From positions 374,573 through 406,572 of the forward strand of contig NZ_JBBMFE010000001.1 in assembly GCF_040096155.1 (NCBI RefSeq): a stretch of 32,000 nucleotides of DNA. The letters run 5' to 3'. The position numbers were made by a program, and so were the translations under genes. Below, one piece after another: positions 1,379 to 31,973 of the stretch (position 1 is the first letter of the stretch; the number at the start of each line of letters is the position of its first letter). This stretch comes from Laedolimicola intestinihominis (lineage in GTDB: Bacteria > Bacillota > Clostridia > Lachnospirales > Lachnospiraceae). Below the pieces are notes generated by a model. That model did no database searches, was not told where the DNA came from, and saw nothing but the letters and a program-made list of their open reading frames with translations.

Positions 1379-1506
1379 TAAAGTGTCAGATAAATATGTC
1401 TGAATTATTATGACTATTATGCAAAAATGACGATTATAAACAATTTCTAAAATATTAGCACCCCTACTTGATTATAAATATATGGGATTTATCCTGTTTT
1501 GTAGAG

Positions 1507-1561
1507 AAAAAGAAAATGCCAGAAACCTTGATTTTATAAGGATTTTTGGCATTTTCTTTTT
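1507..1561. terminator. Long perfect hairpin, probably a bidirectional rho-independent terminator
   Basis: AAAAAGAAAATGCCA (1507-1521) pairs perfectly with TGGCATTTTCTTTTT (1547-1561), a 15-bp stem. It has an A-run on one side and a T-run on the other, and sits in AT-rich DNA between the AKR gene and the EEP operon. Confidence 0.55.
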
Positions 1562-1748
1562 GTGACAGGGTGTGTCTGGATTTGTCATAAGCAAATGAAA
1601 ATATGTAAAAAATATGTATAGGAAAATGCGAAAAATATTCAAAAAGGAAAAGATTTGAAAAATTTGAAAATATGCAGGTGAATAATATATACATTATTTT
1701 CAATTTTATGGTATCATAAAAATAAAGATAAAAAGAAGGTGATATAAG

Positions 1749-2558
1749 TTGCTAAATATTATGTTTTGGAATCTTAAAAGAAATGCTATTGAGGATATGA
1801 TTATAACGTGCATCGCTGAGAATAACATTGACATTGCAATTTTTGCAGAGTTTGACAATATAGATTTTAATAAGATAGAAGAAAGCTTGGGAAAAATGTA
1901 TAAGCGAATTTTGGGGGTACAAAAAGATAGGGATAGAAAGGTAACGCTTATAGCAAAGACTACTTTTGATATTAAGAGCATAGAACAAGAAAAGCGGTAT
2001 AACATTTATAATATTGAGACAGGATTGAAAAAATACATTTTAGCAGCAATTCACTTGGAAGACAGACGAAATTATGAAACAAGAGACAGACTTGAAACGA
2101 TACGGGATATAATGGAAAATATTGAACAAACAGAAGCATTGTGGAAATGCAATAACACAATAGTTATTGGAGATTTTAATGCCAATCCGTATGATGAAGA
2201 ATTAATAAGTCGGTATGCGTTTAATTCTGTTTTATTTAAAACAATTATAAATAAAAACGAATTAAGAAATCCTAGCACATTAAAAAAGAAACGATTTTAT
2301 AATCCTATTTTACATTACATATCCGAAGAAACGGAAATGTATGGAAGTTTTTATTATGAAAATGGTTCAGTGACTCCCTATTGGTATTGTCTAGATCAAC
2401 TATTAGTAAGAAAAGAGTTAATAAATAGTATTTGTCATATGGAATATTTGAAGAGGATAGATAAGAAAGAGTTGTTAAAGAACGGAATACCAGATCAGGA
2501 AATAAGTGATCACTTACCATTATTAGTAAAATTACAGGAGGTAGGAAATGGAGTATGA
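1749..2558 (+). CDS. Endonuclease/exonuclease/phosphatase (EEP, DNase I-like) family protein, cytoplasmic, all catalytic motifs intact
   Basis: The 269-aa ORF carries the ordered EEP motifs FWNL (Asn), IAIFAEF (Glu), LAAIHL (His), VIGDFNANP (Asp-x-Asn), LDQLLV (Asp) and SDHLPLL (Asp-His). There is no signal peptide. GGTGAT lies 7 nt before the TTG start at 1749; the alternative ATG is at 1761. Codon usage is very AT-rich. The stop overlaps the next gene start by 11 nt. Confidence 0.8.
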   Translation: MLNIMFWNLKRNAIEDMIITCIAENNIDIAIFAEFDNIDFNKIEESLGKMYKRILGVQKDRDRKVTLIAKTTFDIKSIEQEKRYNIYNIETGLKKYILAAIHLEDRRNYETRDRLETIRDIMENIEQTEALWKCNNTIVIGDFNANPYDEELISRYAFNSVLFKTIINKNELRNPSTLKKKRFYNPILHYISEETEMYGSFYYENGSVTPYWYCLDQLLVRKELINSICHMEYLKRIDKKELLKNGIPDQEISDHLPLLVKLQEVGNGV

Positions 2559-3543
2559 AAATTATTGGATAGTTGATGATGAGGGCCATGAGGATTTAAA
2601 ATACACTGAAAATATTTGTAAAATAATGGAGCAACAATGCCGATATTTGTTTGATTATACAAATGGGTGTGTTTTTGCGGTTTTTGATGAAATAAAAACG
2701 GAGGGTTCAATAATTGCGACAGCAAAAACTATGGCAAACGCATTTAGGATTCTGTCAGGAAAGATGGAATTACAAGAAACTATTGCTGAATCATCTACAA
2801 AAAATTTAATAGATGCGAATAATATGTATTTTGATAAACGTTATGGATTTGAAATATGTACTGAAGAATATAGATTTAGGGTATTTGAGTTAAGAATGAC
2901 CCCAATATATCCTGTAGAAATCAATATTGATGAAGGAATATGCAAAAATATAAGAAATACTTTAGACAGGGTAGCCATTCCAATGGAAAAAGTTAATTAT
3001 TTTAGAATCGGTGATGAAGAAGCTTTTTGTAATGTACTACAAGCTATTTTGCAAGATAAAAAAGTGCGTTATATCGTTGGTGAGCTGCAAAAACGTGTGC
3101 AAGAAAGAAATGCGAATAAAGAGAATTTGCCTGGGAAGGTAATTATATGTGAAGGACAGACGGATGAAATAGTACTTCAAGCGATTGCCAAAAAGTTAAA
3201 TAAAGAGGTTACGATTGTAGTAGCTAATGGGAAATACAATGTACCGGCTGTTTTAGAGGGTGTGAGAATGAAATCTAGCAAACCGGAAATTTTGGTGGTT
3301 GTTGATTCTGACGGAGATGAAGAGCAAACTCGAAATATAATTGTTGAAAAATTGGGCGTTGGAGGTTATGAATTGGCAATAGTTAATAGTTGTATAGAAG
3401 ATTGGTTTATGCCTGAGACAGAAAAATTTAGCAAACTGAAATTTATGTATTTAGTGAATTCTATGGTGGAAGAAGCTGATTTTGAAGAATTAGGAAAAGC
3501 TCATAAATCCTTTGCTAAAGTAGTTGAATTTTTGCAAAGATAA
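2548..3543 (+). CDS. Unknown N-terminal domain fused to a C-terminal OLD/DUF4435(AriB)-like Toprim domain, with no ATPase motif
   Basis: 331-aa ORF with AGGAGG 6 nt upstream of the ATG. The C-terminal ~140 aa reads VIICEGQTDE (Toprim Glu), VVVDSDGDEE (DxD) and SCIEDWF (the IE[ND][YW] tail seen in OLD/AriB-type Toprims). I see no Walker A. I could not assign the N-terminal ~190 aa to any family by eye. Confidence 0.75.
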   Translation: MEYENYWIVDDEGHEDLKYTENICKIMEQQCRYLFDYTNGCVFAVFDEIKTEGSIIATAKTMANAFRILSGKMELQETIAESSTKNLIDANNMYFDKRYGFEICTEEYRFRVFELRMTPIYPVEINIDEGICKNIRNTLDRVAIPMEKVNYFRIGDEEAFCNVLQAILQDKKVRYIVGELQKRVQERNANKENLPGKVIICEGQTDEIVLQAIAKKLNKEVTIVVANGKYNVPAVLEGVRMKSSKPEILVVVDSDGDEEQTRNIIVEKLGVGGYELAIVNSCIEDWFMPETEKFSKLKFMYLVNSMVEEADFEELGKAHKSFAKVVEFLQR

Positions 3544-3583
3544 TTCATGAAATTTCTAAAAGTGCATAAAATATAAAAGTCTA

Positions 3584-3611
3584 GGGAAGCGTTAAATGGC
3601 TTCCCTTTTTC
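3584..3611 (+). terminator. Rho-independent terminator of the EEP/Toprim operon
   Basis: GGGAAGC (3584-3590), loop GTTAAATG, GCTTCCC (3599-3605), then TTTTT. It lies 40 nt after the stop at 3543. Confidence 0.7.
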
Positions 3612-4040
3612 TAAAATTCCTTCAAATTCGGCCTCTCAGGCCGAAGACAAATCCCCAAACATCATTTATGATTATATCAGGAACAGCAAAAACCTGTTCA
3701 CAGACAACTGAATAGCAGTTACAGCATGGAAAATTCCGGCGTATATTCGGCAGAATATCAGCGGGGCCTGCGAGGAGAGTTGATGGACCGAGAGGTGAAG
3801 ATGGAGCAGGTACAGATTGGATTGATTACGGCGGAAGGATAATAACTCACGAAGGGAGCTGAAGTGGTTTCCTGGCCCTCGAAATAAGCAGCAGAGGGGA
3901 CGAGCGGTATATAGAATACCGGTCTTGTGAACATCAGAGGATGTCATGCGGCAGGGTTGCCAGTAACTCCCACGTACACGGGGCGAAGAGGAACAAGCGT
4001 GTACTTACATGGAAAATATGAAATGGAGGGATAAGGAAGG

Positions 4041-5878: not shown

Positions 5879-6820
5879 ATGGAGGCGAACCTAGAATTTT
5901 CAGCTTTTTGTAGAAGCATACAAGAGGGGCTGGAACAGAAAAAAGAGCTTAAAAAATATCAGTTTACTATAGAGAATGGCGCGATTCTAATTGCAAGGAT
6001 AAGAAACGGACAGACAAGCAGTGTGGAAATGAAGCTGGATGATTCCTATGAACGGTATTGTAAATCAGGTGACTATGCAAGTGTATATGAGAGTCTTGAA
6101 AAATATCTGACAGAAATCGGAGCAAATTTGGATAAGTGCCTGGAGAGCAATCAGAAAGAGAAACTGATAAAGGAAAACTTGATTTTTAAGCTGGTCAATA
6201 CACGTTATAACAGTGACTATTTGCAGGATGCTCCGCATAGAGAAATCGGCGATATGTCAGTGGTATATTGCTGGAAAATCTCGGACAAATTGTTTGGAAA
6301 ACTTACAAATAACGTGATGGAAAAGCTGGGGTGGACAGAGGAGATGCTGTATGAGATGGCTTATAAGAATACAAGAGAAATGAATCCGCCTGTACTGGAA
6401 AGCATCTATGAAGCGATTGGCCCAACATGGGATACAAGCTATGAGAAAGAAATCAGAGCAAAAAGAATGCTGGTTCTTACGAATCAGAGTAAGGATTATG
6501 GAGCGGTCATGATGCTATATGATGATTTACTGCAAAGCGCGGCAAAACGTGCAGGAGAGGATATATATGTACTTCCATCGTCTGTGCATGAAGTAATTTT
6601 GATGCCGGTATCACTGACGAATGGTGTCATGGCGCAGTTGCGCTTACGTGAAGTAAATCGGAAAGAAGTAAAACCGAAAGACACGTTATCGTATACGGCA
6701 TACAAATATGATGCGAAGGCTCATACTTTGAAACCAGTAGATTTCGGTGGTAGGAAACGAAAAAGTAAAAAAACGGAAAAGCAGCCTATAAATTTAGATA
6801 TTGCCGATAAGGTAAGATAG
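5879..6820 (+). CDS. DUF5688-like ICE protein (paralog A)
   Basis: 313 aa with a GGGGA RBS. It shares long motifs with the next ORF (PHREIGDMSVVYCW, GWTEEMLYEMAYKNTREMNPP, VLTNQ, MMLYDD, YVLPSSVHE). The family name is from memory of similar ICE proteins and is not verified. Confidence 0.7.
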   Translation: MEANLEFSAFCRSIQEGLEQKKELKKYQFTIENGAILIARIRNGQTSSVEMKLDDSYERYCKSGDYASVYESLEKYLTEIGANLDKCLESNQKEKLIKENLIFKLVNTRYNSDYLQDAPHREIGDMSVVYCWKISDKLFGKLTNNVMEKLGWTEEMLYEMAYKNTREMNPPVLESIYEAIGPTWDTSYEKEIRAKRMLVLTNQSKDYGAVMMLYDDLLQSAAKRAGEDIYVLPSSVHEVILMPVSLTNGVMAQLRLREVNRKEVKPKDTLSYTAYKYDAKAHTLKPVDFGGRKRKSKKTEKQPINLDIADKVR

Positions 6821-6828
6821 GAGGAAAA

Positions 6829-7770
6829 ATGGCAGGAAGAATGAATTTTGAAGAGTTTTGTAACCGTGTAGTGCAGGAAATAAACCAGGAAAAAGCGCTG
6901 GGGGAGAGCGTTGCCAGTTATGAGGATAAAAAAATTCGTGTAACGGAAAGAAAAAATGGCCGCAGTGTGAGTACCGGACTGGAACCGAAAGGGTGTTATG
7001 ACTGGTATGCTGCTACAGGAGATTTTACCAGGGCATATGCGGATATTAAAGAAAATCTGCGGACTGCAATGGAAGAGTTTCATGAGAAGGTTGGAGAGGT
7101 GAGACTGGACAAGAAATCAATCGAAGAAAGTCTGCATTTTCAGTTGGTAAATACGGAAAGAACTGGAGAAATACTGAACCACATGCCGCACCGGGATATG
7201 GGGGATATGTCAGTAGTCTATTGTTGGCAGGTGGCAGATGAGATGATTGGAAAAATTACAAATCAAGTGGCAAAGAGTATGGGCTGGACAGAAGAAAAAT
7301 TGTATCGGATGGCTTATGAGAATACCAGGCAGGTGAATCCCCCAAGACTGGAAAGTATGGGGAATATGCTGAAACTGTTGGGAGGCTTAGACGATATGAC
7401 GAATGCTGCCCCAGCTCAAATGTATGTCCTTACCAACCAGAAAAATACGGCAGGGGCAGCTATGATGTTGTATGACGATATGTTGGAGAAGGCGGCAGAA
7501 AAGCTGGGTGGAGATGTATATGTTATTCCGTCTTCCATTCACGAGACACTTTTAATTCCGGCAGGCATCACAGAGGCAATCGAAGTACAGGATTTACTTC
7601 GTGAAATGAATCAGACGCTGTATCCGGGAGATCTTCTGTCGAACACCCTGTATATGTACGATGCCCATGCACATGAACTCAAACCGGCGGACGTACATCC
7701 AATACGAACCAATAGTCAGGAAGTGTATGAACCGGTATTTCGGCCCACCTTTGTAGTCAGTGCCAGATAG
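6829..7770 (+). CDS. DUF5688-like ICE protein (paralog B)
   Basis: 313 aa with an AGGAGG RBS. It is colinear with 5879-6820 (PHRDMGDMSVVYCW, GWTEEKLYRMAYENTRQVNPP, VLTNQ, MMLYDD, YVIPSSIHE). Confidence 0.7.
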   Translation: MAGRMNFEEFCNRVVQEINQEKALGESVASYEDKKIRVTERKNGRSVSTGLEPKGCYDWYAATGDFTRAYADIKENLRTAMEEFHEKVGEVRLDKKSIEESLHFQLVNTERTGEILNHMPHRDMGDMSVVYCWQVADEMIGKITNQVAKSMGWTEEKLYRMAYENTRQVNPPRLESMGNMLKLLGGLDDMTNAAPAQMYVLTNQKNTAGAAMMLYDDMLEKAAEKLGGDVYVIPSSIHETLLIPAGITEAIEVQDLLREMNQTLYPGDLLSNTLYMYDAHAHELKPADVHPIRTNSQEVYEPVFRPTFVVSAR

Positions 7771-9404: not shown

Positions 9405-9422
9405 TCTATGATATCAGGGGTT

Positions 9423-9483
9423 TTAGGGGATTTTCCCCTAACCAGAGGCATTTGGACGGTGACGTCACAAATGCGTATCTGGC
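9423..9483 (+). promoter_or_regulatory. Candidate oriT core: two palindromes followed by a MOBP-like nic motif
   Basis: TTAGGGGA-TTT-TCCCCTAA (9423-9441), the 10-bp palindrome GTGACGTCAC (9459-9468), and 7 nt later TATCTGGC (9476-9483), which resembles the YATCCTG/Y nic core. It lies directly upstream of the mobC/relaxase operon. Confidence 0.3.
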
Positions 9484-9579
9484 AAGAGACCGACAGGGCT
9501 CTTGAAAAGAAGGGAGGAATAAAGTACGGAAGAAACAAAAATAGAGTGGATAAAAAATGCGGATGATTTTCTGGACTGG

Positions 9580-10047
9580 ATGACGGTCCACCAAAGCTAT
9601 TCGGCAGTTTTCAAAAAGGATGCGGCGGCTGTGCTGTTCTATGTAGAGCAGATGCAGTACGAGATTGGCAGTCGGGACGGGGAGCTTGTACGGCGGAAGA
9701 TTGGAAAAGAGAAAGTAGAGTCATACCGGTATGAGGATTTGATTGATGATGTAGATATCTGGATTTTTGGGAAAATACTGGAACTGAACGCGCTTCGGGA
9801 TGATTGTCGCAATGACATTGAACGGGCGGTTCATGAGAGCGAGTATCAGCGGCTGAAGGAGGATGAGCGGCGTGTCGGAAAACTGTACGAGAAGACTTGT
9901 TACGGGAAGGCAGTAGATGTCTTAGCGGAGCGGTTGGCAGAAAAACTGTTTGACAATATCCTGAAGGGCAAGTACAAGCAGGAAATTCAGGATATAGCAG
10001 AGAAAATCTGCAGTTTTGCGGAAGAGGAAAAGAAGTATGGCCGCTAA
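9580..10047 (+). CDS. Hypothetical protein, first gene of the relaxosome operon
   Basis: 155-aa ORF with coding-like composition. Its stop overlaps the MobC start by 11 nt. No family recognised. Confidence 0.6.
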   Translation: MTVHQSYSAVFKKDAAAVLFYVEQMQYEIGSRDGELVRRKIGKEKVESYRYEDLIDDVDIWIFGKILELNALRDDCRNDIERAVHESEYQRLKEDERRVGKLYEKTCYGKAVDVLAERLAEKLFDNILKGKYKQEIQDIAEKICSFAEEEKKYGR

Positions 10048-10363
10048 ATGGGTGCGGAAAACCGTACGATTAACGGAGATGGAAGCGAGGCTTTTGGCAG
10101 AAAGAGCTGCAGAGAGCGGATTACCGGAAAATCAGTACATTCGTTTCCAGATACGGCAAAGACCGTCAGATTATCCGGCGGTGCAAAAATTGTTAAAAGA
10201 GCTGCTCAATGAGATAAACCGGATAGGGAACAATATCAACCAGATTGTTCACGGAAATCACATGGATTTTTATACAGAAGCAGACAAAGAACAGCTTTCG
10301 GCTTATATGAGGCGGCTGAATCTGTCCATGCGTGAGGTGATAGAGAAAATTGGCAATCAGTAA
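10037..10363 (+). CDS. mobC: MobC-family relaxosome accessory protein
   Basis: VRLTEMEARLLAERAAESGLPENQYIRFQI ... LNEINRIGNNINQIV matches the MobC (RHH-like plus NNxNQ) pattern. I prefer the ATG at 10037 (GAGGAAAAG upstream) over the track start at 10016. Confidence 0.8.
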   Translation: MAAKWVRKTVRLTEMEARLLAERAAESGLPENQYIRFQIRQRPSDYPAVQKLLKELLNEINRIGNNINQIVHGNHMDFYTEADKEQLSAYMRRLNLSMREVIEKIGNQ

Positions 10364-11840
10364 AATTACCTGTATGAAAGATTGCGGAAAGAGTTATCAC
10401 GGAAAACATTTGAGGGCAGCTCTTGCATATATCACAGTTCCGGAAAAGACACAGCAAGGGAGGCTGGTGGCAGGTATAAATTGCGTACCGGAATTTGCTT
10501 TTGAGCAGATGAAGGATACAAAACGGAAATACGGGAAGTTAGACAAGCGGCAGGGATATCATTTGGTCTTATCCTTCAAAGAAAATGAGGTTACCCCGGA
10601 CACCGCCATGGAATTAACTTCCCGCTTCGTAAAGGAATATCTCGGCAGCGAATACGAGGCTGTCTACGCCGTCCACGACAACACCCGGCATATTCACGCC
10701 CATATCGTATTCAACAGCGTGAGCTTCCTAACCGGGAAAAAGTACCGCTATGAAAAAGGTGACTGGGCCAGGGAGATACAGCCTATCACCAACCGACTCT
10801 GTCAGGAGTATGGTCTGTCCACAATCGAAATTGAGGACGATAAGCTGAATCAGGATGTGGAATACCGGGAAACCCGGAAAGAGCAGGCAATTCAGCATGT
10901 CTGGAATTCGGCTATTCGGCGGGATCTGGATGCTTGTATCATTCTGTCAGCCACGTATGAGGAGTTTCAGCGGGAGCTTACAGAACGGGGCTATGAGTGT
11001 AAAGAAGGCAAGTATCTGGCTATCCGTCCGCCGGGCATGAAGCGGTTCCGCAGGACGCAGCGACTGGGAGAGGATTATACGATAGAACGAATACAGGAGA
11101 GAATTGAGACCGAAACTTTGCGGTCAGTCGCCAGGGCAGGCCAGGGCCATGCCCCGCGGATCGTGGGCGGCAGTGTCCGCAGACACCGGAGGCCGAAACT
11201 GACGGGTCTGCAGAAGCGGTACTTTGCCCGCCTGTACAGGATCGGCAAGCTGAAAAAGCGACCTTACAGTCAGGTGTGGAGATACTGGGAAGATATCCGG
11301 AAAATGAAAAAGCTCCAGAATCAATATCTGTTTCTGGCCAGAGAGGACATCACGACGGTTCCGGAGCTTCAGAATGCCGTACAGGCTCTGACTGCCAGGC
11401 AAAAGGAAGCGGCCAGGGAGAAAAGCCGTCTGGGAAAACAGAAGCACCGATTTCAGGAGTTGTTTGAATTGGCGGCAAAGATGGAGGAGCTGGAAGCAGC
11501 GTTTCATTCCTATGAGCGTGGCGATTCCTTTTTTACGGAAGAGCATCAGGAATATGAGGCGTGCCAGAAGGCCTTGGCGGAAAAGGGATATACCTATGAG
11601 GAAATCTGCGCGGTCAGGGAGCGGATTACCCGGGAGTATGCGGAAGCGACTTCCCGGGAACGGCAGCTCTACCGGGAACTGAAAACCGGAAAGGGACTGT
11701 TAAAAGAAATGGAAACAGAGGATAAAACACAGAGACAGACAAAGGGGGAAATAGATGGAACAGAACGAAGAGAAGAGCAGGAAGCTCAGCGCCAGGGAGA
11801 TCGAGGCGTATCTGCAGAAAATGAAAAAATCACATTATAG
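10350..11840 (+). CDS. Relaxase/mobilisation nuclease (MobA/VirD2 family)
   Basis: 496 aa. It has the histidine triad VHDNTRHIHAHIVFNSVS and an N-terminal MAISKI.. start typical of this family (TTG start at 10350; the alternative ATG is at 10374). The C-terminal half is a basic coiled coil. Confidence 0.85.
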   Translation: MAISKITCMKDCGKSYHGKHLRAALAYITVPEKTQQGRLVAGINCVPEFAFEQMKDTKRKYGKLDKRQGYHLVLSFKENEVTPDTAMELTSRFVKEYLGSEYEAVYAVHDNTRHIHAHIVFNSVSFLTGKKYRYEKGDWAREIQPITNRLCQEYGLSTIEIEDDKLNQDVEYRETRKEQAIQHVWNSAIRRDLDACIILSATYEEFQRELTERGYECKEGKYLAIRPPGMKRFRRTQRLGEDYTIERIQERIETETLRSVARAGQGHAPRIVGGSVRRHRRPKLTGLQKRYFARLYRIGKLKKRPYSQVWRYWEDIRKMKKLQNQYLFLAREDITTVPELQNAVQALTARQKEAAREKSRLGKQKHRFQELFELAAKMEELEAAFHSYERGDSFFTEEHQEYEACQKALAEKGYTYEEICAVRERITREYAEATSRERQLYRELKTGKGLLKEMETEDKTQRQTKGEIDGTERREEQEAQRQGDRGVSAENEKITL

Positions 11841-21888: not shown

Positions 21889-24800
21889 ATGTATCAGATG
21901 AATCAGCTATATGACACCGCAGTGCAGAGGGCAGCCGCGTCTTCCGAGACCTGGAAAGAGGTGCTGCGGCTGAATGGGCGGCTGTACCGGTACGAGTGGG
22001 AAAATATACTGTTAATCTGGATACAGCGTCCGAATGCAGTGCTGGCGGCTGATTATGACAGTTGGAAAAAGGTAGACCGCTATGTACGCCGGGGAAGCAG
22101 GGGGATCGGTATCTTTCCTTCCAGGGCTTTAAAATCGCATTTGCGCTATGTATTTGATTTCAAGGACACCGGGGGAAGAAACCGGAAACTTACCTGGGAT
22201 CTGGAAGGGCCACATCTAAAGGAATATCTGGACTATCTGGTAGAAAGCGGGCAGATGGAAGCCTACGACGAAAAGGGCGATGAAAAGGCGCAAAAAAATC
22301 TGTTAAATATATTTACAGGAACAAATGTTTGGTCTATGATAAAAGCAGATTACAGCGAACGAATTTCAGATCTGGTCAGGACAGCGAAAGGGATGACAGA
22401 AGAAAAGGCCAAAGATATGATCTATCGCAGCGTCCTATATACGGTAGGAAGCAGGTGCAGTCTGGATACCGTAGAGCCGGATTTTTCAGATATCCGGGAT
22501 TACGCAGACGAAGAGATCCTGTATCGGCTGGGGACACTGGTCAATGATATATCCTGTGAGATCTTAAGGGAGTTCGCGCGAAATATCCGATACATGGAAC
22601 GCGAAAGGAGAAGGATATACGATGGAAGGGATGAATCTGCATTATCAACGAAAAGACGGCCTGCTGTATCCGGAGATGGAAGTACCCGGTCAGGATCTGA
22701 GTCGCGTCGGAAAGTACGGCCATCTGGCCATGCGCTATCTGAAAGAGAACGAGGAGAGCCGGTACAGCTTTCTTTACCGCTGTGGGAAACTGGAGGAGAA
22801 GATGCGGGAAGTAGACCGGGAAGCGAACGAGATGCTGGCAGAGCTGATGGACAGTTACCTGAAATCCAGGCCCCTGCAGAACCGGAGATCCTTTCTGGAA
22901 CAGTGGAAGCTGCGGGAACAGGCGCAGATGCAGGCGGAGGAGATCGTATTGCGCGAGATTGTCTGGCAGTATCATTAGATTTTCACTATGATCTCTGGGA
23001 GCTTCCGGAAGGAGGCCCCAAGACCAGATACCAGTGGAACCGGGAGGCTATTCAGACCTTAAAGCGGATTGAGTCAGAGGGCCGGAGGGCGACAGCGGAG
23101 GAACAGCAGACTCTATCGAAATATGTGGGCTGGGGCGGTCTGTCCCAGGCATTCGATGAACAAAATCCAGGCTGGGCCAAAGAATACGCGGAACTTAAAG
23201 GGCTTCTGAACCCGGAGGAATATGCGGCAGCGCGTGCCTCAGTCAATACCGCGTTTTACACACCGCCGGAGGTGGCGGCCTGCATGGGGCAGGCGTTGGA
23301 ACAATTCGGATTTCGCTCCGGAAATATATTGGAACCGTCTATGGGAATCGGCAGCTTCTTCGGAAGTATGCCGATTTCTTTGCAGAACAGCAAACGCTAT
23401 GGTGTGGAACTTGATCGAATATCCGGAAGGATAGCAAGGCAGTTGTACCAGACGGCCAAGATTCAGATTACCGGCTTTGAAAAGACTGCTTTTCAGGCCG
23501 ATTTTTTTGATGTGGTTATTGGAAATGTGCCCTTTGGCGATTATAAGGTCCATGACCCGGCCTACGATAAGTATCATTTCCGGATTCACGATTATTTTAT
23601 CGCGAAAGCCCTGGATCTGGTAAGGCCCGGAGGCATGGTGGCAGCAATTACCACCAAAGGAACCATGGATAAGAGCAATCCGACCGTGAGAAAGTATCTA
23701 GCGGAGCGAGCCGAGTTGAAAGGAGCGATTCGGCTTCCCAGTACAGCGTTCAAGGCGCAGGCCGGAGCCGAGGTGACGGCAGATATCCTGTTTTTGCAGA
23801 AACGGGAGCGAAAAATGGAGGTGGAACCGGACTGGGTACATCTGGGATATACGGAGGACGGCATTGCGGTAAATTCCTATTTCGCAGAGCATCCGGAAAT
23901 GATGCTGGGCAGGATGGAGTATGACAACGGTCCCTTTGGAGCAGACAGCCATTATACCGCCTGTGTAAACCGTGATCCGGATTTCAATCTGTATGCGGCT
24001 CTGCGTAAGGCCATCGGCAATATTCATGCGGAGTTGGCAGCCTTTGAACATGTCGTGGAAAGAGAGGAGACGACAGAGGAAATCATTCCCGCAGACCCGG
24101 AGGTAAAAAATTATACTTTTACGTTTCTAAATGGAAAGCTGTATTACCGGGAAAATTCTCAGATGTATCTGCGTGAGGTGTCCGGGCGGGAAAAAGAGCG
24201 AATCCAGGGGCTTGACGTGATCCGGAATCAGGTACGCAGCCTGATCCGTCTGGAGCTTGGAGGATGCACAGCGGCAGAGCTGAAGCCGGAGCTGGAAAAG
24301 CTAAATCAGATCTACGATGCGTATGTGGAAGAATATGGGTATCTGACGGGCACAGAGAATGGCCGTGTCTTCCGAGATGACGCGGATTATCCGCTCTTGT
24401 GTTCGCTGGAATGTGTGGAAGAAAACGGGGCTGTCAAAAAGGCAGATATTTTTTATAAGCAGACCATCAAACCGGATGTGCGGGTGGAGCACGTGGATAC
24501 GGCCACCGAAGCCTTGTATATCTCCATGAATGAGCGAGGCTGCGTGGATCTGGAATTTATGTATGGACTTTATCAGCCGGATTTACTGAAATACCAGAAA
24601 GAGGTGGCAGAGGTCACCGGCCAGCAGCCGGAAGAAATTGCATTTACGGAGGCGGAGAAGAAAGAACTGTCCCTTAGTGCCATTGCAGAGGAGCTAAAAG
24701 GCATTATTTATCTGAACCCGGAACGCTATCACGCGCAGAGTCCGTGGAACGGCTGGGAGATGGCCGGGGAATATCTGTCAGGCAATGTCCGGAATAAGCT

Positions 24801-27030
24801 GAAAATCGCCCAGGAGGCAGCAAAGAAGAATCCGGAGCAGTTCCGGGCCAATGTAGAAGCCCTTGAGCTGGTGCAGCCGGAATATATTTCAGCAGCGGAT
24901 ATCAATGTGCGGCTCGGTACGACGTGGATCGATATAGAAGACTATGAGGCCTTCCTGTATGAGCTTCTGGATACCCCGTATCGGTACCAGAGAGGAAACT
25001 GGGACGGAAGATATGAAATACGGATCCAACTGAACCGCTACAATATGGAATATCACATCCTGAATAAGTCCATGCACAGTTCCGGCGTGCTAGTGAAAAA
25101 GAACTACGGTACCGAGCGGATGGATGCCTATTCTATCGTAGAAGCGACGTTAAATCTGCGGACAGTCGTGGTCAATGATCGGGAAGAGCTGGGCGGAGGA
25201 AAGTACCGGTATGTGGTGAACAAGGTGGAAACCATGCTTGCCCGGGAAAAACAGAACCAGATTCAGGAGGCCTTTCGGGAATGGATTTTTCGGGACCCGG
25301 AGCGTCGGCAGAAATACGAACGGTATTATAATGAAACCTTTAACTGTATCCGTCTGAGGGAATACGATGGTTCATACCTGCAATTTCCGGGCATGAACCC
25401 GGAGATCGAGCTGCTCCCACACCAGAAAAACGCGGTAGCACGTATTCTTTTCGGGGGAAATACCCTACTTGCCCATTGCGTGGGGGCTGGGAAGACCTTT
25501 GAAATGGTAGCGGCCTGTAAGGAGCAGAAACGGCTTGGAATTGCCTATAAAACCGCTATGGTAGTACCCAAAAGCGTCATTATGCAAACGGCCAGTGAGT
25601 TCCTGCGCCTTTATCCGTCCGCAAATATCCTGATTGCCACGGAACGGGATTTTGAGAAAAGTAGACGCCAGCAGTTCATCAGCAGAATCGCGACCGGGGA
25701 CTACGACTGTATTATCATGTCCCATTCGCAGTTCGAGAAAATCCAGATTTCGCCGGAGCGCAGGGAACAGCTGCTCAGTGACAAGGTGGAAGAGCTCCAA
25801 GAGGCTATTGGAGAGGAAAAAATGAAAAATGGGGAACGCTGGACGATTAAGCAGATGGAAGCGCAGAAGAAGCGGCTGGAAACACAGTTGTCCATGCTTG
25901 CGGACGAGCGGCGGAAGGATGATCTGGTCTACTTTGAAGAACTTGGCATTGATAGTATTATGGTCGATGAAGCACATTTTTATAAAAATATGGCCATCTT
26001 TTCCAAAATGAGCAGGGTGTCCGGTATCACAGCAAATGGAGCAAAAAAATGTACGGACATGGAGATGAAGTGTCAGTACCTGACAGAGCTGAACGGCTCC
26101 CGGGGAATCGTGTTTGCCACCGGAACGCCCATCAGTAACACCATGTGTGAGATGTATGTGATGCAGACTTACTTGCAAAAAGAGACGCTGGAGCAGATGG
26201 GACTAAGCCATTTTGACGCATGGGCCGCCAATTTCGGAGAGGTGACCACGGCGCTGGAACTGACCGTGGAAGGAAGCGGCTTCCGGTTTAAAAGCCGGTT
26301 TAACCGTTTTGTGAATCTCCCGGAGCTTATGAGTATGTTCCGGGAGGTGGCGGACGTGCAGACAGCGGAGATGCTAAACTTAAATATCCCGAAGCTGCGG
26401 GGCGGAAAAGCCATTATCGTGGAAACGGAGCCGGATTTCTATGTAAAAGATCTCATGCAGGAAATAGTGGAACGGGCAGATCGCATCCGAAACGGGGCAG
26501 TGTCACCGAACGAGGACAATTTCCTGAAAATCACCCATGAGGCAAGACTTCTGGGAACGGACGCGCGTCTGCTGCGTGCGGATGCGCCCAACAATCCGGA
26601 TGGAAAACTGAATAAGGTGGTAGAAAATGTATTCTATGAATATAAGAAAGCAGAAGCTGATGGCCGGATAGGCTGCCAGCTTATTTTTTCGGATATCGGT
26701 ACGCCGGGAGGCAAGGAGTTCGACGTCTACCATTATATCAAGGACGAGCTGATGGAACAAGGAATCCCGGAGGAAGAGATTGCGTTTATCCATGACGCCA
26801 AGACAGATAAGCAGCGCGCGGCGTTGTTTCGGGAGATGCGCAGCGGCAAGCGGCGTATCCTGATTGGCTCTACGGAAAAATGCGGTGTCGGCGTCAATGT
26901 ACAGCGCCATATCGTAGCCATCCACCATGTGGATTGTCCGTGGAGGCCGGACGATGTAGGACGGATTTTGCGGACATTCAAAATAAAAAAGAATGTGGAG
27001 GTAACAGACAATGGCAAAATCATTATTTGA
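21889..27030 (+). CDS. Polyvalent ICE protein: ArdC-N-like domain, disordered linker, N6-adenine DNA methyltransferase, SNF2/DEAD-like helicase; 3'-truncated
   Basis: ArdC-N-like [39 protein letters not shown]. MTase motif [12 protein letters not shown] and motif [10 protein letters not shown]. Helicase motif I CVGAGKTF, motif [12 protein letters not shown], motif [11 protein letters not shown] and motif [14 protein letters not shown]. The ORF ends ...[35 protein letters not shown], that is, inside or at motif VI. Confidence 0.8.
22622..22978 (+). CDS. TnpV-family small protein, nested in an alternative frame inside the polyvalent ORF
   Basis: 118-aa ORF bounded by TAA (22565-22567) and TAG (22976-22978). 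AAAGGAGAAGG lies 8 nt before the ATG. It is colinear with the TnpV at 27011-27385 (Y.R....L.P...VP......G..G.....YLK......Y..L...G.L ... coiled C-terminus ... EIV). Confidence 0.65.
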
Positions 27031-27751: not shown

Positions 27752-29671
27752 ATGAAAATAATTAACTTAGGCATTCTGGCTCACGTTGACGCAGGAAAGA
27801 CAACATTAACGGAAAGTTTATTGTATACCAGTGGTGCAATTGCAGAACTAGGGAGCGTAGATGAAGGCACAACAAGGACAGATACAATGAATTTGGAGCG
27901 TCAAAGGGGAATCACTATCCAGACAGCAGTGACATCTTTTCAGTGGGAGGATGTAAAAGTCAACATTATAGATACGCCAGGCCATATGGATTTTTTGGCG
28001 GAAGTATACCGTTCTTTATCCGTATTAGACGGAGCAGTATTATTAGTTTCTGCAAAGGATGGCATACAGGCACAGACCCGTATACTGTTTCATGCACTAC
28101 AGACAATGAAGATTCCGACAATTTTTTTCATCAATAAAATTGACCAAGAGGGGATTGATTTGCCAATGGTATATCGAGAAATGAAAGCAAAGCTTTCTTC
28201 GGAAATTATAGTGAAGCAAAAGGTTGGGCAGCATCCCCATATAAATGTAACGGACAATGACGATATGGAACAGTGGGATGCGGTAATTATGGGAAACGAT
28301 GAACTATTAGAGAAATATATGTCAGGGAAACCGTTTAAAATGTCAGAACTGGAACAGGAAGAAAACAGGAGATTCCAAAACGGAACGTTATTTCCCGTTT
28401 ATCACGGAAGCGCTAAAAACAATCTGGGGATTCGGCAGCTTATAGAAGTGATTGCCAGTAAATTTTATTCATCAACGCCTGAAGGTCAATCTGAACTATG
28501 CGGGCAGGTTTTTAAGATTGAATATTCAGAGAAAAGGCGGCGTTTTGTTTATGTGCGTATATATAGCGGAACATTGCATTTGAGGGATGTTATTAGAATA
28601 TCTGAAAAAGAGAAAATAAAAATCACAGAGATGTGTGTTCCGACAAACGGTGAATTATATTCATCCGATACAGCCTGCTCTGGTGATATTGTAATTTTAC
28701 CAAATGATGTTTTGCAGCTAAACAGTATTTTGGGGAACGGAATACTGTTGCCGCAGAGAAAATTTATTGAAAATCCTCTCCCTATGCTCCAAACAACGAT
28801 TGCAGTAAAGAAATCTGAACAGCGGGAAATATTGCTTGGGGCACTTACAGAAATTTCAGATGGCGACCCTCTTTTAAAATATTATGTGGATACTACAACG
28901 CATGAGATTATACTTTCTTTTTTGGGGAAAGTGCAGATGGAAGTCATTTGTGCCATCCTTGAGGAAAAATATCATGTGGAGGCAGAAATAAAAGAGCCTA
29001 CTGTTATATATATGGAAAGACCGCTTAGAAAAGCAGAATATACCATCCACATAGAAGTCCCGCCAAATCCTTTCTGGGCTTCTGTCGGGTTGTCCATAGA
29101 GCCGCTCCCTATTGGAAGCGGAGTGCAGTATGAAAGCAGAGTTTCACTTGGATATTTAAATCAATCGTTCCAAAATGCGGTTATGGAGGGGGTTCTTTAT
29201 GGCTGCGAGCAGGGGCTGTATGGATGGAAAGTGACAGACTGTAAAATCTGTTTTGAATATGGATTGTATTATAGTCCTGTAAGTACCCCCGCAGACTTTC
29301 GGCTGCTTTCCCCTATCGTATTGGAGCAGGCTTTAAAAAAAGCAGGGACAGAACTATTAGAGCCATATCTCCACTTTGAAATTTATGCACCGCAGGAATA
29401 TCTCTCACGGGCGTATCATGATGCTCCAAGGTATTGTGCAGATATTGTAAGTACTCAGATAAAGAATGACGAGGTCATTCTGAAAGGAGAAATCCCTGCT
29501 AGATGTATTCAAGAATACAGGAACGATTTAACTTATTTCACAAATGGGCAGGGAGTCTGCTTGACAGAGTTAAAAGGATACCAGCCAGCTATTGGTAAAT
29601 TTATTTGCCAACCCCGCCGCCCGAATAGCCGTATAGATAAGGTTCGGCATATGTTCCACAAGTTAGCTTAA
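27752..29671 (+). CDS. tet(O): Ribosomal protection tetracycline resistance protein Tet(O) or a Tet(O)-like mosaic
   Basis: The 639-aa translational GTPase reads [81 protein letters not shown]... and ends ...[20 protein letters not shown]. It matches my memory of Tet(O) nearly throughout and is clearly distinct from Tet(M). AGGAGG lies 8 nt upstream. Confidence 0.93.
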
Positions 29672-30386: not shown

Positions 30387-30896
30387 GTGAAATACGCACC
30401 GAGAAAGGTATATATCAAGGAAAGCGGCAGATATGTGGAACTGTCCTATACGGATTTCTGCCGCCGCAGGGAATCCGACCAGACCTATATGGACAAGCTG
30501 TTTATCCCCATTCAAGGCTGTCTGCTTGAAGTCGTGAGGGAGCAATACACGGACTTCTACCGAGATAAGGAACGGTGGCGTTATCTGAAAAAATTAGATA
30601 CGAAGAACAGCCTGCTTTCTCTGGATGGATTTACGGACAGCGAGGGGAAGCCTTTAGACTTTATCGCTGATGAAGCGGCAGACATTGCGGAAACCGTTGT
30701 CAATGCGGTTATGGTGGACAGGCTGAAAGCCGCCCTGCCTTTGCTGTCGGATAGTGAACAGGAATTGATACAGGCAATCTTTTTTGACGGACTTTCTGAG
30801 CGTGAAGTCGGGGCGAGGTTCGGCATAACCCAGAGCGTTGTGAACAAACGCAAAGCCAGAATCCTAAGAAAACTAAGAAAGATAATAGAAAATTAA
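30387..30896 (+). CDS. Sigma-70 region-4-like HTH regulator (1 of 3)
   Basis: GTG start with GGGAGG 8 nt upstream. The C-terminus LPLLSDSEQELIQAIFFDGLSEREVGARFGITQSVVNKRKARILRKLRK is a region 4.2 HTH. Confidence 0.8.
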   Translation: MKYAPRKVYIKESGRYVELSYTDFCRRRESDQTYMDKLFIPIQGCLLEVVREQYTDFYRDKERWRYLKKLDTKNSLLSLDGFTDSEGKPLDFIADEAADIAETVVNAVMVDRLKAALPLLSDSEQELIQAIFFDGLSEREVGARFGITQSVVNKRKARILRKLRKIIEN

Positions 30897-30912
30897 AATT
30901 TAAGGCGTTCAG

Positions 30913-30952
30913 CCCCCTTGTTTTTTCCTTTGGGAAAATGAGGGGGTTTTTC
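30913..30952 (+). terminator. Terminator between sigma-like genes 1 and 2
   Basis: CCCCCT...AGGGGG outer stem with an inner TTTTCC/GGAAAA pairing, then TTTTTCT. It lies inside the track ORF 30938.., which argues for the later start at 30992. Confidence 0.6.
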
Positions 30953-30991
30953 TCTGCCCTCTCAATCAATTCTGATTGGAGGAAAAGAAGC

Positions 30992-31423
30992 ATGGCATAT
31001 AACCACGGACGGGAGGACAGGAAATGGCGTATCTGGAAAGAAGCGGAGGAAAAGCTGCTGCGTGAGTGCGGCGTTGATGAAGCGACCATTGAGCAGATAC
31101 GCATTGCGGACAGGGCAGACTTCAATTCCAACAGGCGGTTTTACCGATGGACGAATGACATTGCGGAATACCTTGAGGACATGGCAGACAGGGAGCGGCA
31201 GACGGAAGTGGGTACGGTTGCGGAGTTACTGGACGAGATTGAGAGCGAAAATCTCTATCAAGTATTAGTCGCGGTGGACGGGCGTACCTTGAAAATCGTC
31301 CTGCTGAAAATGCAGGGGTATTCCACAAAGGAGATTGCCCCGCTCGTGCATTTGACGACTGGTGCCATCTATGCGAGGTTAGACCATCTGCGGAAGAAGC
31401 TACGAAAATTTTATAGCGTCTAA
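30992..31423 (+). CDS. Sigma-70 region-4-like HTH regulator (2 of 3)
   Basis: GGAGG lies 9 nt before the ATG at 30992. The C-terminus VDGRTLKIVLLKMQGYSTKEIAPLVHLTTGAIYARLDHLRKKLRK is a region-4/LuxR-like HTH. Confidence 0.75.
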   Translation: MAYNHGREDRKWRIWKEAEEKLLRECGVDEATIEQIRIADRADFNSNRRFYRWTNDIAEYLEDMADRERQTEVGTVAELLDEIESENLYQVLVAVDGRTLKIVLLKMQGYSTKEIAPLVHLTTGAIYARLDHLRKKLRKFYSV

Positions 31424-31451
31424 AACAGCCTGCCGTCCTGCGGGCTACTGG

Positions 31452-31483
31452 GTGAGGGATGGAAATCCCCTCACTTATTTTTT
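31452..31483 (+). terminator. Terminator between sigma-like genes 2 and 3
   Basis: GTGAGGG-ATGGAAATC-CCCTCAC followed by TTATTTTTT. It lies inside the track ORF 31452.., which argues for the start at 31500. Confidence 0.6.
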
Positions 31484-31499
31484 GCAGGAGGCAAGCGGG

Positions 31500-31973
31500 A
31501 TGGCATACAGAGTTAAGGCGTACACGCTTCGGGAGGAATCCACGGAAAGCGGCACAAGGTATTTTATCAGCTTTAAGGACGGGCAGGGCAAATCCCACGA
31601 GTTGGAAGTGTCGGAACAGTTCTTTATGGAGTTTCGGCAGATGGAACGCAGGAACAGGAATCTCCTCCAATGGGACGAGCGGCACAGGGAGTTTTCGGAA
31701 GTATGGGACGAAACGCTGAACAGGCGGGCGTTGAAGCTGCCTAAGAGCATAGAGGAACAAATGATTGAGGCAGAACGGGCAGAACTGCTCTGTAAGGCGG
31801 TTGACGGACTGCCAGAGATACAAAGGCGGCGTTTCCTGCTCTACTACGAGTATGAGTTCAATTTTTACCAAATCGCCGCTATGGAGCATTGCACCGCTTC
31901 GGCAATACAGAAATCTGTTGCGATTGCAAAGGAGAAAGTAAAGGCGGAAATGAGGAAGTATCTCCAACCGTGA
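31500..31973 (+). CDS. Sigma-70 region-4-like HTH regulator (3 of 3)
   Basis: AGGAGG lies 8 nt before the ATG at 31500. The C-terminus LPEIQRRRFLLYYEYEFNFYQIAAMEHCTASAIQKSVAIAKEKVK is a region-4-like HTH. Confidence 0.75.
   Translation: MAYRVKAYTLREESTESGTRYFISFKDGQGKSHELEVSEQFFMEFRQMERRNRNLLQWDERHREFSEVWDETLNRRALKLPKSIEEQMIEAERAELLCKAVDGLPEIQRRRFLLYYEYEFNFYQIAAMEHCTASAIQKSVAIAKEKVKAEMRKYLQP

Follow-up and report, generated by a model that had tools for sequence, protein, structure and literature searches.

A conserved two-gene module of an EEP phosphodiesterase and an unannotated partner domain, a candidate toxin-antitoxin-like defence cassette beside a tet(O) conjugative element

In the described systems closest to the locus considered here, Toprim domains are found in the company of an ABC ATPase: in OLD proteins an ABC ATPase domain precedes the Toprim domain in the same chain (PMC10568477), PARIS and HEC-01 are defined by their ABC ATPase partner (10.1101/2024.01.29.577857; PMC10568477), and in HEC-01 the ABC ATPase HEC-01A is encoded next to the Toprim protein HEC-01B (10.1101/2024.01.29.577857). 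The cassette described here lies in a stretch of 32,000 nucleotides (nt) from Laedolimicola intestinihominis (contig NZ_JBBMFE010000001.1, positions 374,573 to 406,572; hereafter the window, numbered from its first letter) and consists of two overlapping genes on the + strand. Gene A (1749-2558; 269 amino acids, aa) encodes an enzyme of the endonuclease/exonuclease/phosphatase (EEP) superfamily, and gene B (2548-3543; 331 aa) a protein in which an OLD-like Toprim domain follows an N-terminal domain of 190 residues, here called N-dom. The initial annotation of this stretch presented the cassette as an EEP nuclease paired with an ATPase-less OLD/AriB-type Toprim protein. This is accurate for one sub-clade and does not extend to the family, where the usual partner of the EEP enzyme is an N-dom protein of 140-190 aa with no Toprim domain. 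The conserved unit is EEP plus N-dom, not EEP plus Toprim; this module of two genes is real, conserved and apparently new to the literature and, judged from its sequences, a credible candidate for a new toxin-antitoxin-like defence module. The broader label given in the initial annotation, a candidate defence or toxin system, still stands.

The pairing of the two genes is strict. A genome scan with an EEP profile returned 25 loci (loci carry L numbers below); an N-dom gene lies directly downstream in all 16 of those in which the EEP protein is at least 35% identical and the downstream DNA is readable, and again in Enterocloster citroniae L037, where EEP identity is 25%. The reverse look-up, from distant N-dom proteins, finds an EEP gene directly upstream in three cases out of three. 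Pairs occur in Butyribacter, Eubacterium, Pseudobutyrivibrio, Butyrivibrio, Faecousia, Acutalibacteraceae, Ruminococcus, Bacteroidales, Olsenella and Collinsella, and plasmid-borne EEP relatives of 28% identity in Bacillus cereus and Clostridium estertheticum are again followed by N-dom proteins, of 141-143 aa (E about 1e-10). The gap between the EEP and N-dom genes runs from -11 to +24 nt in every one of 23 pairs. The pair is conserved as neighbours across genomes, a check that the initial annotation had proposed, and the 11-nt overlap of the window recurs identically in six loci (L001, L008, L019, L033, L044 and L050).

Over these 23 pairs, the pairwise-identity matrices of A and N-dom correlate with r=0.92 (Mantel p<=0.0005), and in 94.5% of the comparisons A is the less variable of the two; this fits an enzyme and its regulator or sensor. 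The two genes also decay unequally: in L005, L007, L026 and L029 gene A is broken and gene B intact, the reverse is never seen, and gene A is never found without gene B. The asymmetry of decay and the absence of a solitary gene A hint that the danger lies in A. An additional branch of the module, diverged still further, may be represented by L065 on the Bacillus mycoides plasmid pl395 (4986-6664), where a distant EEP homologue precedes, with an overlap of 4 nt, the gene of a 261-aa protein only just picked up by the N-dom profile (E 0.11). This pair has a prophage lysis cassette on one side and a retron Eco8 system on the other.

N-dom (residues 1-190 of B, encoded by 2548-3117 on the + strand) is well predicted over residues 21-50 and 91-180 (pLDDT 80-91), with residues 51-91 forming, in the predicted structure, a variable, disordered loop. 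It has no match in Pfam, NCBIfam, PADLOC or the sequences of the PDB, where searches with the B and N-dom profiles gave nothing significant, and no structural match in Foldseek against PDB and BFVD, run with full-length B. Its most conserved motif, YxFEIy...YxFRxF, is a predicted beta-hairpin (B residues 97-117, window 2836-2898). Two candidate relatives were rejected. The likeness to the UPF0339/DUF1508 (YegP-like) repeat (PDB 2k7i, E 0.74) is unconvincing, the alignment lying partly on TEV-tag sequence. For a CARF domain, the PADLOC matches to Csa3, CasR and CARF cover only the C-terminal winged helix-turn-helix (wHTH) of variants of about 230 aa, and the predicted topology has a beta-meander, not the alternation of a Rossmann fold.

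The family that N-dom defines is large: its profile detects 299 clusters (defined at 50% identity) at E<=1e-3 among 1.84 billion representative proteins. Among the 150 best listed, most are stand-alone proteins of 140-190 aa, about 13 are Toprim fusions of about 320-335 aa, and about a dozen are proteins of about 230 aa, several of which have a C-terminal tail matching wHTH families (HTH_24, MarR, IclR); one form of 285 aa ends in a coiled-coil, MCPsignal-like tail. N-dom has at least three alternative add-ons at its C-terminus, the Toprim domain among them. The partners of divergent A homologues (44-47% identity) show the same, being proteins of 180-184 aa that align to B residues 1-185 and lack the Toprim domain. 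N-dom proteins are acidic, with a median isoelectric point of 4.9.

One way to read this pattern is as an obligate heteromeric nuclease resembling a restriction enzyme, in which N-dom, as a reader of DNA or of modified DNA, would target or activate the EEP enzyme, the wHTH and Toprim add-ons would contribute DNA binding or second-strand cleavage, and foreign DNA would be attacked while the host is spared. Strict pairing and co-evolution agree with this, as does the frequency with which restriction-modification (R-M) systems adjoin the pair, but no methyltransferase or other gene of self-protection is conserved together with it, and the EEP gene alone decays in some loci. The add-ons wHTH and Toprim are indeed modules that bind or cleave nucleic acids; a DNA-binding one is, however, absent from most N-dom proteins, and N-dom itself, for all its well-folded and conserved core, is acidic and has no recognisable DNA-binding fold. 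On balance such a heteromer is an unlikely explanation, though not a negligible one.

Gene A is predicted to encode the effector, from motif conservation, AlphaFold and Foldseek. The protein carries the complete catalytic set of the EEP superfamily (N8, E34, H102, D142, N144, D216, D254 and H255, with N8 encoded at 1770-1772 and D254-H255 at 2508-2513), and these residues are identical in 111-113 of 113 aligned sequences, comprising the window protein and 112 cluster representatives. The window protein alone scores 23.3 bits against the Pfam family Exo_endo_phos (PF03372; gathering threshold 24.5), and many of its homologues carry a precomputed match to this family. Its AlphaFold (AF2) model (pLDDT 91, pTM 0.91) has the four-layer alpha/beta sandwich fold of the superfamily and retrieves 282 PDB chains at E<=1e-3 in Foldseek; the best 50 listed are all EEP enzymes, led by TDP2 and EEPD1 (E 2e-12), and the matches further include the LINE-1 and TRAS1 endonucleases, nocturnin, DNase1L3, ExoIII and DNase I. 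A profile of protein A has no significant match among PDB sequences. Because sequence identity to the structural relatives is 12-18% and the TM score about 0.55-0.65, protein A is not assigned to a sub-family. On this evidence it is an intact EEP phosphodiesterase; the enzymes nearest to it in structure mostly cut nucleic acids, and its substrate is presumably nucleic acid. With TDP2, EEPD1, the LINE-1 endonuclease, DNase I/DNase1L3 and ExoIII it shares the fold and the full catalytic set; unlike protein A, none of these works with an N-dom-like partner.

The place of TDP2 and EEPD1 at the top of the structural matches raises the question of a role in conjugation-linked DNA processing or repair, in which a TDP2-like EEP enzyme would remove 5'-phosphotyrosyl protein-DNA adducts of relaxase or topoisomerase, with the Toprim domain helping; alternatively, the cassette could serve an anti-defence function of the leading region of an integrative and conjugative element (ICE). 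The location of some copies is suggestive here: in the window the cassette adjoins the region of an ICE with ParM, DUF5688, RadC, primase and relaxase genes, and in L044 the pair lies inside an ICE, between type IV secretion system genes and the gene of topoisomerase III, just upstream of the latter. The TDP2 match (TM about 0.6) is, however, no better than those to the LINE-1 endonuclease, DNase I and ExoIII, and the Toprim domain is absent from most family members. Further points against the repair role are that its composition marks the cassette as foreign to the ICE, that it is variably placed and that it is mostly found outside ICEs. As for anti-defence, neither A nor B has a tblastn match in the INPHARED phages, and absence from phage genomes argues against a common anti-defence gene. 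In PLSDB plasmids B has no tblastn match either, and A has only distant relatives, of 28% identity, in the plasmid collection. Both versions together are very improbable.

The remainder of protein B (residues 197-331, encoded by 3136-3543 on the + strand) is an OLD-like Toprim domain with a C-terminal helical tail, as identified through Pfam, PADLOC and Foldseek. OLD-like_TOPRIM (PF20469) matches residues 197-310 with 30.2 bits, above its gathering threshold of 23.2, and the Toprim signature consists of E202 (3151-3153), D253-S-D255 (D253 at 3304-3306, D255 at 3310-3312) and I283-E284-D285-W286. In an alignment of 111 full-length B sequences (the window protein and 110 cluster representatives), E202, D253, E284, D285 and W286 are identical in 110-111. 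D255, the second Asp of the DxD motif, is Asn in 43 of the 111, all of them from the Roseburia-type lineage P0056, in which the Toprim domain may be inactive or altered. This lineage (loci L001-L006, 8001-8987), with DSN in place of DSD, is the most abundant B variant, found in 868 contigs, and its EEP partner keeps a perfect active site.

The best PADLOC match of B is HEC-01B (E 1e-8, at the level of the domain), followed more weakly by mad4, GajA (E 4e-4, Toprim stretch only), AbiLii, Old and RT-Toprim. In the Foldseek search with full-length B against PDB and BFVD, the Toprim part alone is matched, and weakly, by the Toprim domain of RNase M5 (6z2b), a small Toprim protein (2fcj) and AriB (8ux9_A, E 0.11). 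RNase M5, whose name is attached to some B homologues by JGI, and small Toprim proteins thus provide the best structural matches to this part of B; RNase M5 is, however, the product of a single housekeeping gene with a different C-terminal domain, unlike the patchy, foreign and EEP-paired cassette, and the identity was rejected at 15 bits in NCBIfam against a cut-off of 110.65. A Walker A motif is present in neither A nor B, and scans of both proteins with Pfam, PADLOC and NCBIfam reveal no ATPase domain. The domain-level features that the initial annotation had read from the letters all stand: the complete EEP signature, on residue conservation and with AlphaFold and Foldseek in agreement; the Toprim signature (E, DxD, IEDW), with PF20469 above threshold; the lack of a P-loop in both proteins; and the unrecognised N-terminal domain of about 190 aa.

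Searched against PADLOC, Pfam and NCBIfam, the cassette matches no known system, and these searches place it neither in a named system nor in a housekeeping pathway. The PADLOC scan that had been proposed gives no convincing system match for either family: the EEP family yields a single 'Hydrolase' match (0.0035) for one homologue, and the matches of the N-dom family are attributable only to the wHTH tail of some members. Literature searches on EEP/Exo_endo_phos together with Toprim, defence or toxin-antitoxin (TA) systems returned no description of the pair. HEC-01, an untested PADLOC candidate that consists of an ABC ATPase and a stand-alone Toprim protein, and PARIS are among the closest known systems: they share with the cassette a small OLD-like Toprim domain with conserved metal-binding Glu and DxD, a two-gene operon, and a location in defence islands and mobile elements. 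In contrast to these systems, A and B have no Walker A motif, no ATPase gene is conserved nearby, the partner is an EEP enzyme, and the Toprim domain, which follows N-dom in the same polypeptide, is one that most of the family does without. In PADLOC, neither the AriA nor the AriB model of PARIS is matched at E<=1, and HEC-01B is matched with no HEC-01A.

The OLD family in its classes 1-3 (P2 Old, GajA of Gabija, the retron Eco8 effector) has in common with B the Toprim sub-type PF20469, above threshold; in B, however, N-dom takes the position of the ATPase, and the cassette has no UvrD partner, no retron reverse transcriptase and no retron non-coding RNA. No ABC ATPase, fused or adjacent, is found at the window locus. 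For Gabija, the operon contains no helicase and the GajA match is confined to the Toprim stretch; elsewhere, Gabija and retron Eco8 are found next to the pair as systems in their own right. Because the ABC ATPase is absent, the cassette belongs to none of the OLD, Gabija, PARIS or HEC-01 systems and has only a domain in common with them.

The likeness to type II TA modules of the toxin-first kind (higBA, hicAB, mqsRA) is of another sort. As in these, two small, short genes are adjacent, coupled, predicted to be co-transcribed, co-inherited and horizontally mobile, and the second protein is acidic, faster-evolving and, in some variants, equipped with a DNA-binding wHTH; unlike in these, it has 140-190 aa and a folded core and can carry a nuclease domain of its own. 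We know of no described EEP toxin family, and none was found in the literature searched.

The neighbourhoods of the pair in other genomes are variable and rich in defence genes or mobile DNA, a pattern that is qualitative and given without a background rate; a location in defence islands or mobile elements, which the initial annotation had proposed to check, is seen in this qualitative form in several genomes. The pair adjoins AbiH, in one locus together with AbiEii, AbiTii and Phd. Among single contexts, it lies between a TnpV/resolvase plus R-M block and an AAA_15/21 pair; behind a Schlafen/AlbA_2 protein; beside Gabija, DpnII and Fic; beside a type II R-M system, HD and NUDIX; beside DUF4365 and an integrase; beside retron Eco8 at a prophage end, on a plasmid; and upstream of the terminase in a phage-plasmid. 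In 12 further loci, scanned over four neighbours on either side, the commonest neighbour families are N6_Mtase, Eco57I and AAA_21, with AAA_13, IS66, integrase and portal also present, and strong PADLOC matches include type IIG and type I R-M systems, PD-Lambda-5_B and PDC-S57. By a rough estimate, made without a background frequency, defence neighbours are found in about 10 of about 25 apparently independent contexts. In L007-L012, a conserved AAA_15/AAA_21 ATPase (424 aa) and a 172-aa protein are encoded on the other strand, 400 nt downstream of the pair (9412-11206, - strand); they are probably a separate ABC-ATPase defence pair and are not conserved in the other contexts of EEP plus N-dom.

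These locations also bear on whether the module is a plain addiction system, which by post-segregational killing would stabilise ICEs, plasmids and genomic islands and have no role in immunity. Copies at the ICE border in the window, inside ICEs, on a phage-plasmid and on large plasmids would be well placed for this, but many others are chromosomal and stand among defence genes, not on replicons that need stabilising. The coupling and small size of the genes agree with addiction, as does the likeness of the wHTH variants to antitoxins that regulate themselves, but on its own addiction gives little reason for a Toprim fusion. The distinction from defence is moreover not absolute, many TA modules doing both. 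Addiction alone is quite improbable as the whole explanation.

The reading that we prefer, which we hold at an even chance, takes the cassette for a two-gene conflict module that was acquired horizontally and belongs to the toxin-antitoxin or abortive-infection type. The conserved effector would be the product of gene A, an EEP phosphodiesterase dependent on Mg2+ that most likely nicks DNA or acts as a DNase. N-dom would be its obligate partner, binding the EEP enzyme and either keeping it inactive or licensing it on sensing a phage or mobile element; a physical contact between A and B, a direction of control by which A is inhibited or activated, a trigger and a phenotype are all part of what we infer here. 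The C-terminal add-ons would then modulate this core: in the Lachnospiraceae sub-clade of the window, the OLD-like Toprim domain would add a second metal-dependent nuclease activity, and in other sub-clades a wHTH would serve DNA binding or autoregulation, a coiled coil would serve oligomerisation, or no add-on would be present. The outcome would be the degradation of invader and/or host nucleic acid, and with it defence and an incidental stabilising of the carrier element, the module presumably acting as defence, toxin, or both. Past the intact enzyme, the obligate partner and the mobile and defence-rich context, each of these steps is conjectural.

Several observations weigh against the conflict module. 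The only neighbours of the cassette in the window are the aldo-keto reductase and ParM genes, and the association with defence islands elsewhere is qualitative, with no defence neighbours in L049 and L062. The asymmetry of decay comes from 4 loci, 2 of which were retrieved by exact B sequence and are thus biased, and the acidity of N-dom is weak evidence. A nuclease domain fused to an 'antitoxin' is unusual, and N-dom, with its 140-190 aa and well-folded core, is larger and better conserved than typical antitoxins. Finally, the EEP fold also includes phosphatases (nocturnin, inositol phosphatases), so that a substrate other than nucleic acid is conceivable for protein A.

More tentatively, and with the balance tilted against it, EEP plus N-dom may be an unrecognised, widespread family of immune or abortive-infection modules, in which an EEP effector is controlled by a sensor or regulator of new fold that swaps its C-terminal outputs. 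To our knowledge, the EEP fold has not yet been established as a stand-alone defence effector. In one version of this proposal, the TDP2-like enzyme would target protein-linked 5' DNA ends, such as those of relaxase-bound T-strands, rolling-circle Rep and terminal-protein genomes; if true, this would be a defence aimed at conjugative and rolling-circle elements.

At the level of the DNA, the two open reading frames (ORFs), their overlap, separate Shine-Dalgarno (SD) sequences and common terminator lie where the first reading of the stretch had placed them. The SD of gene A, GAAGGTGA (1734-1741, + strand), read from the sequence, stands 7 nt ahead of a TTG start, which is supported because homologues begin MLNILFWNL. 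The SD of gene B, AGGAGGT (2535-2541, + strand), likewise read from the sequence and with the recurrence of the 11-nt overlap elsewhere in its favour, stands 6 nt ahead of its ATG, within the 3' end of gene A; translational coupling of B to A is thus implied. Neither gene is a chance ORF, homologous protein clusters numbering >240 for A and >150 for B. The intrinsic terminator common to both (3583-3611, + strand) consists of a stem-loop (3583-3606; 8 bp with 5 GC pairs, 8-nt loop) and a T-run reaching to 3611, and is the sole terminator-like site downstream of gene B. Upstream of gene A is an AT-rich leader of 370 nt, in which a consensus scan finds a possible promoter (1688-1717, + strand; TATACA, an 18-nt spacer and TG-TATCAT, 9 of 12 consensus positions), overlapped by a 13-nt inverted repeat (1660-1672 / 1695-1707). 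This promoter-like site is weak and not conserved between loci. Nucleotide homology between loci starts at the SD of A (1708-1736) and stops at the stop codon of B; a conserved promoter or flanking sequence bounding a mobile unit was sought between loci and none was found, the homology being confined to the SD and the two ORFs.

The cassette occupies a low-GC island (1390-3650, no strand, delimited by GC content overall and at third codon positions, GC3), with 19-39% GC per 100 nt versus about 50% in the flanks and a GC3 of 26% in A and 24% in B versus 54-68% in neighbouring genes; it is foreign cargo. On one side of it is the aldo-keto reductase gene (533-1378), on the other the end of a conjugative element with a Clostridiales-3 RNA and ParM. 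In the AT-rich spacer past the aldo-keto reductase gene, a 26-nt inverted repeat (1507-1561; 85% complementary, 3-nt loop) could terminate transcription in both directions or mark the left edge of the insertion that brought in the cassette. The Clostridiales-3 RNA (Rfam RF02942) is full-length at 3773-4009 on the + strand (140.8 bits, the gathering score being 103.4). Its position at the border of the conjugative element, with the cassette on one side and the ParM gene on the other, suggests a link with ICE maintenance or with the leading region.

The element itself has the backbone of a Firmicute conjugative element, all on the + strand from 4041 to 27030: a ParM-like actin-like protein (ALP), two tandem DUF5688 paralogues (5879-6820 and 6829-7770), RadC, a Toprim_2/DUF3991 primase, a MobA/VirD2 relaxase, DUF3801, a type IV coupling protein (T4CP), VirB4, an NlpC/P60 hydrolase and, at 21889-27030, an N6-methylase/SNF2-helicase fusion of 1713 aa. 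The ribosomal protection gene tet(O) follows at 27752-29671 (+ strand), in a lower-GC patch of its own within the ICE (about 39-40%), and is 99.7% identical to tet(O) of Enterococcus and Campylobacter plasmids. Downstream of it, at 30387-31973 (+ strand), are three consecutive small ORFs of 169, 161 and 173 aa, each with a sigma-70 region-4 domain.

If validated, the module would add a new effector and partner family to the bacterial conflict systems, from gut Firmicutes, Bacteroidales and Coriobacteriia, groups in which screens centred on E. coli and Bacillus capture the defence repertoire poorly. N-dom, as a well-populated family with neither annotation nor structural match, is a good target for structural and mechanistic work, and its stand-alone, wHTH and Toprim forms provide a natural experiment in the gain of extra effector domains. 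Since the module is found on or beside tet(O) conjugative elements, it may affect the spread or retention of resistance ICEs.

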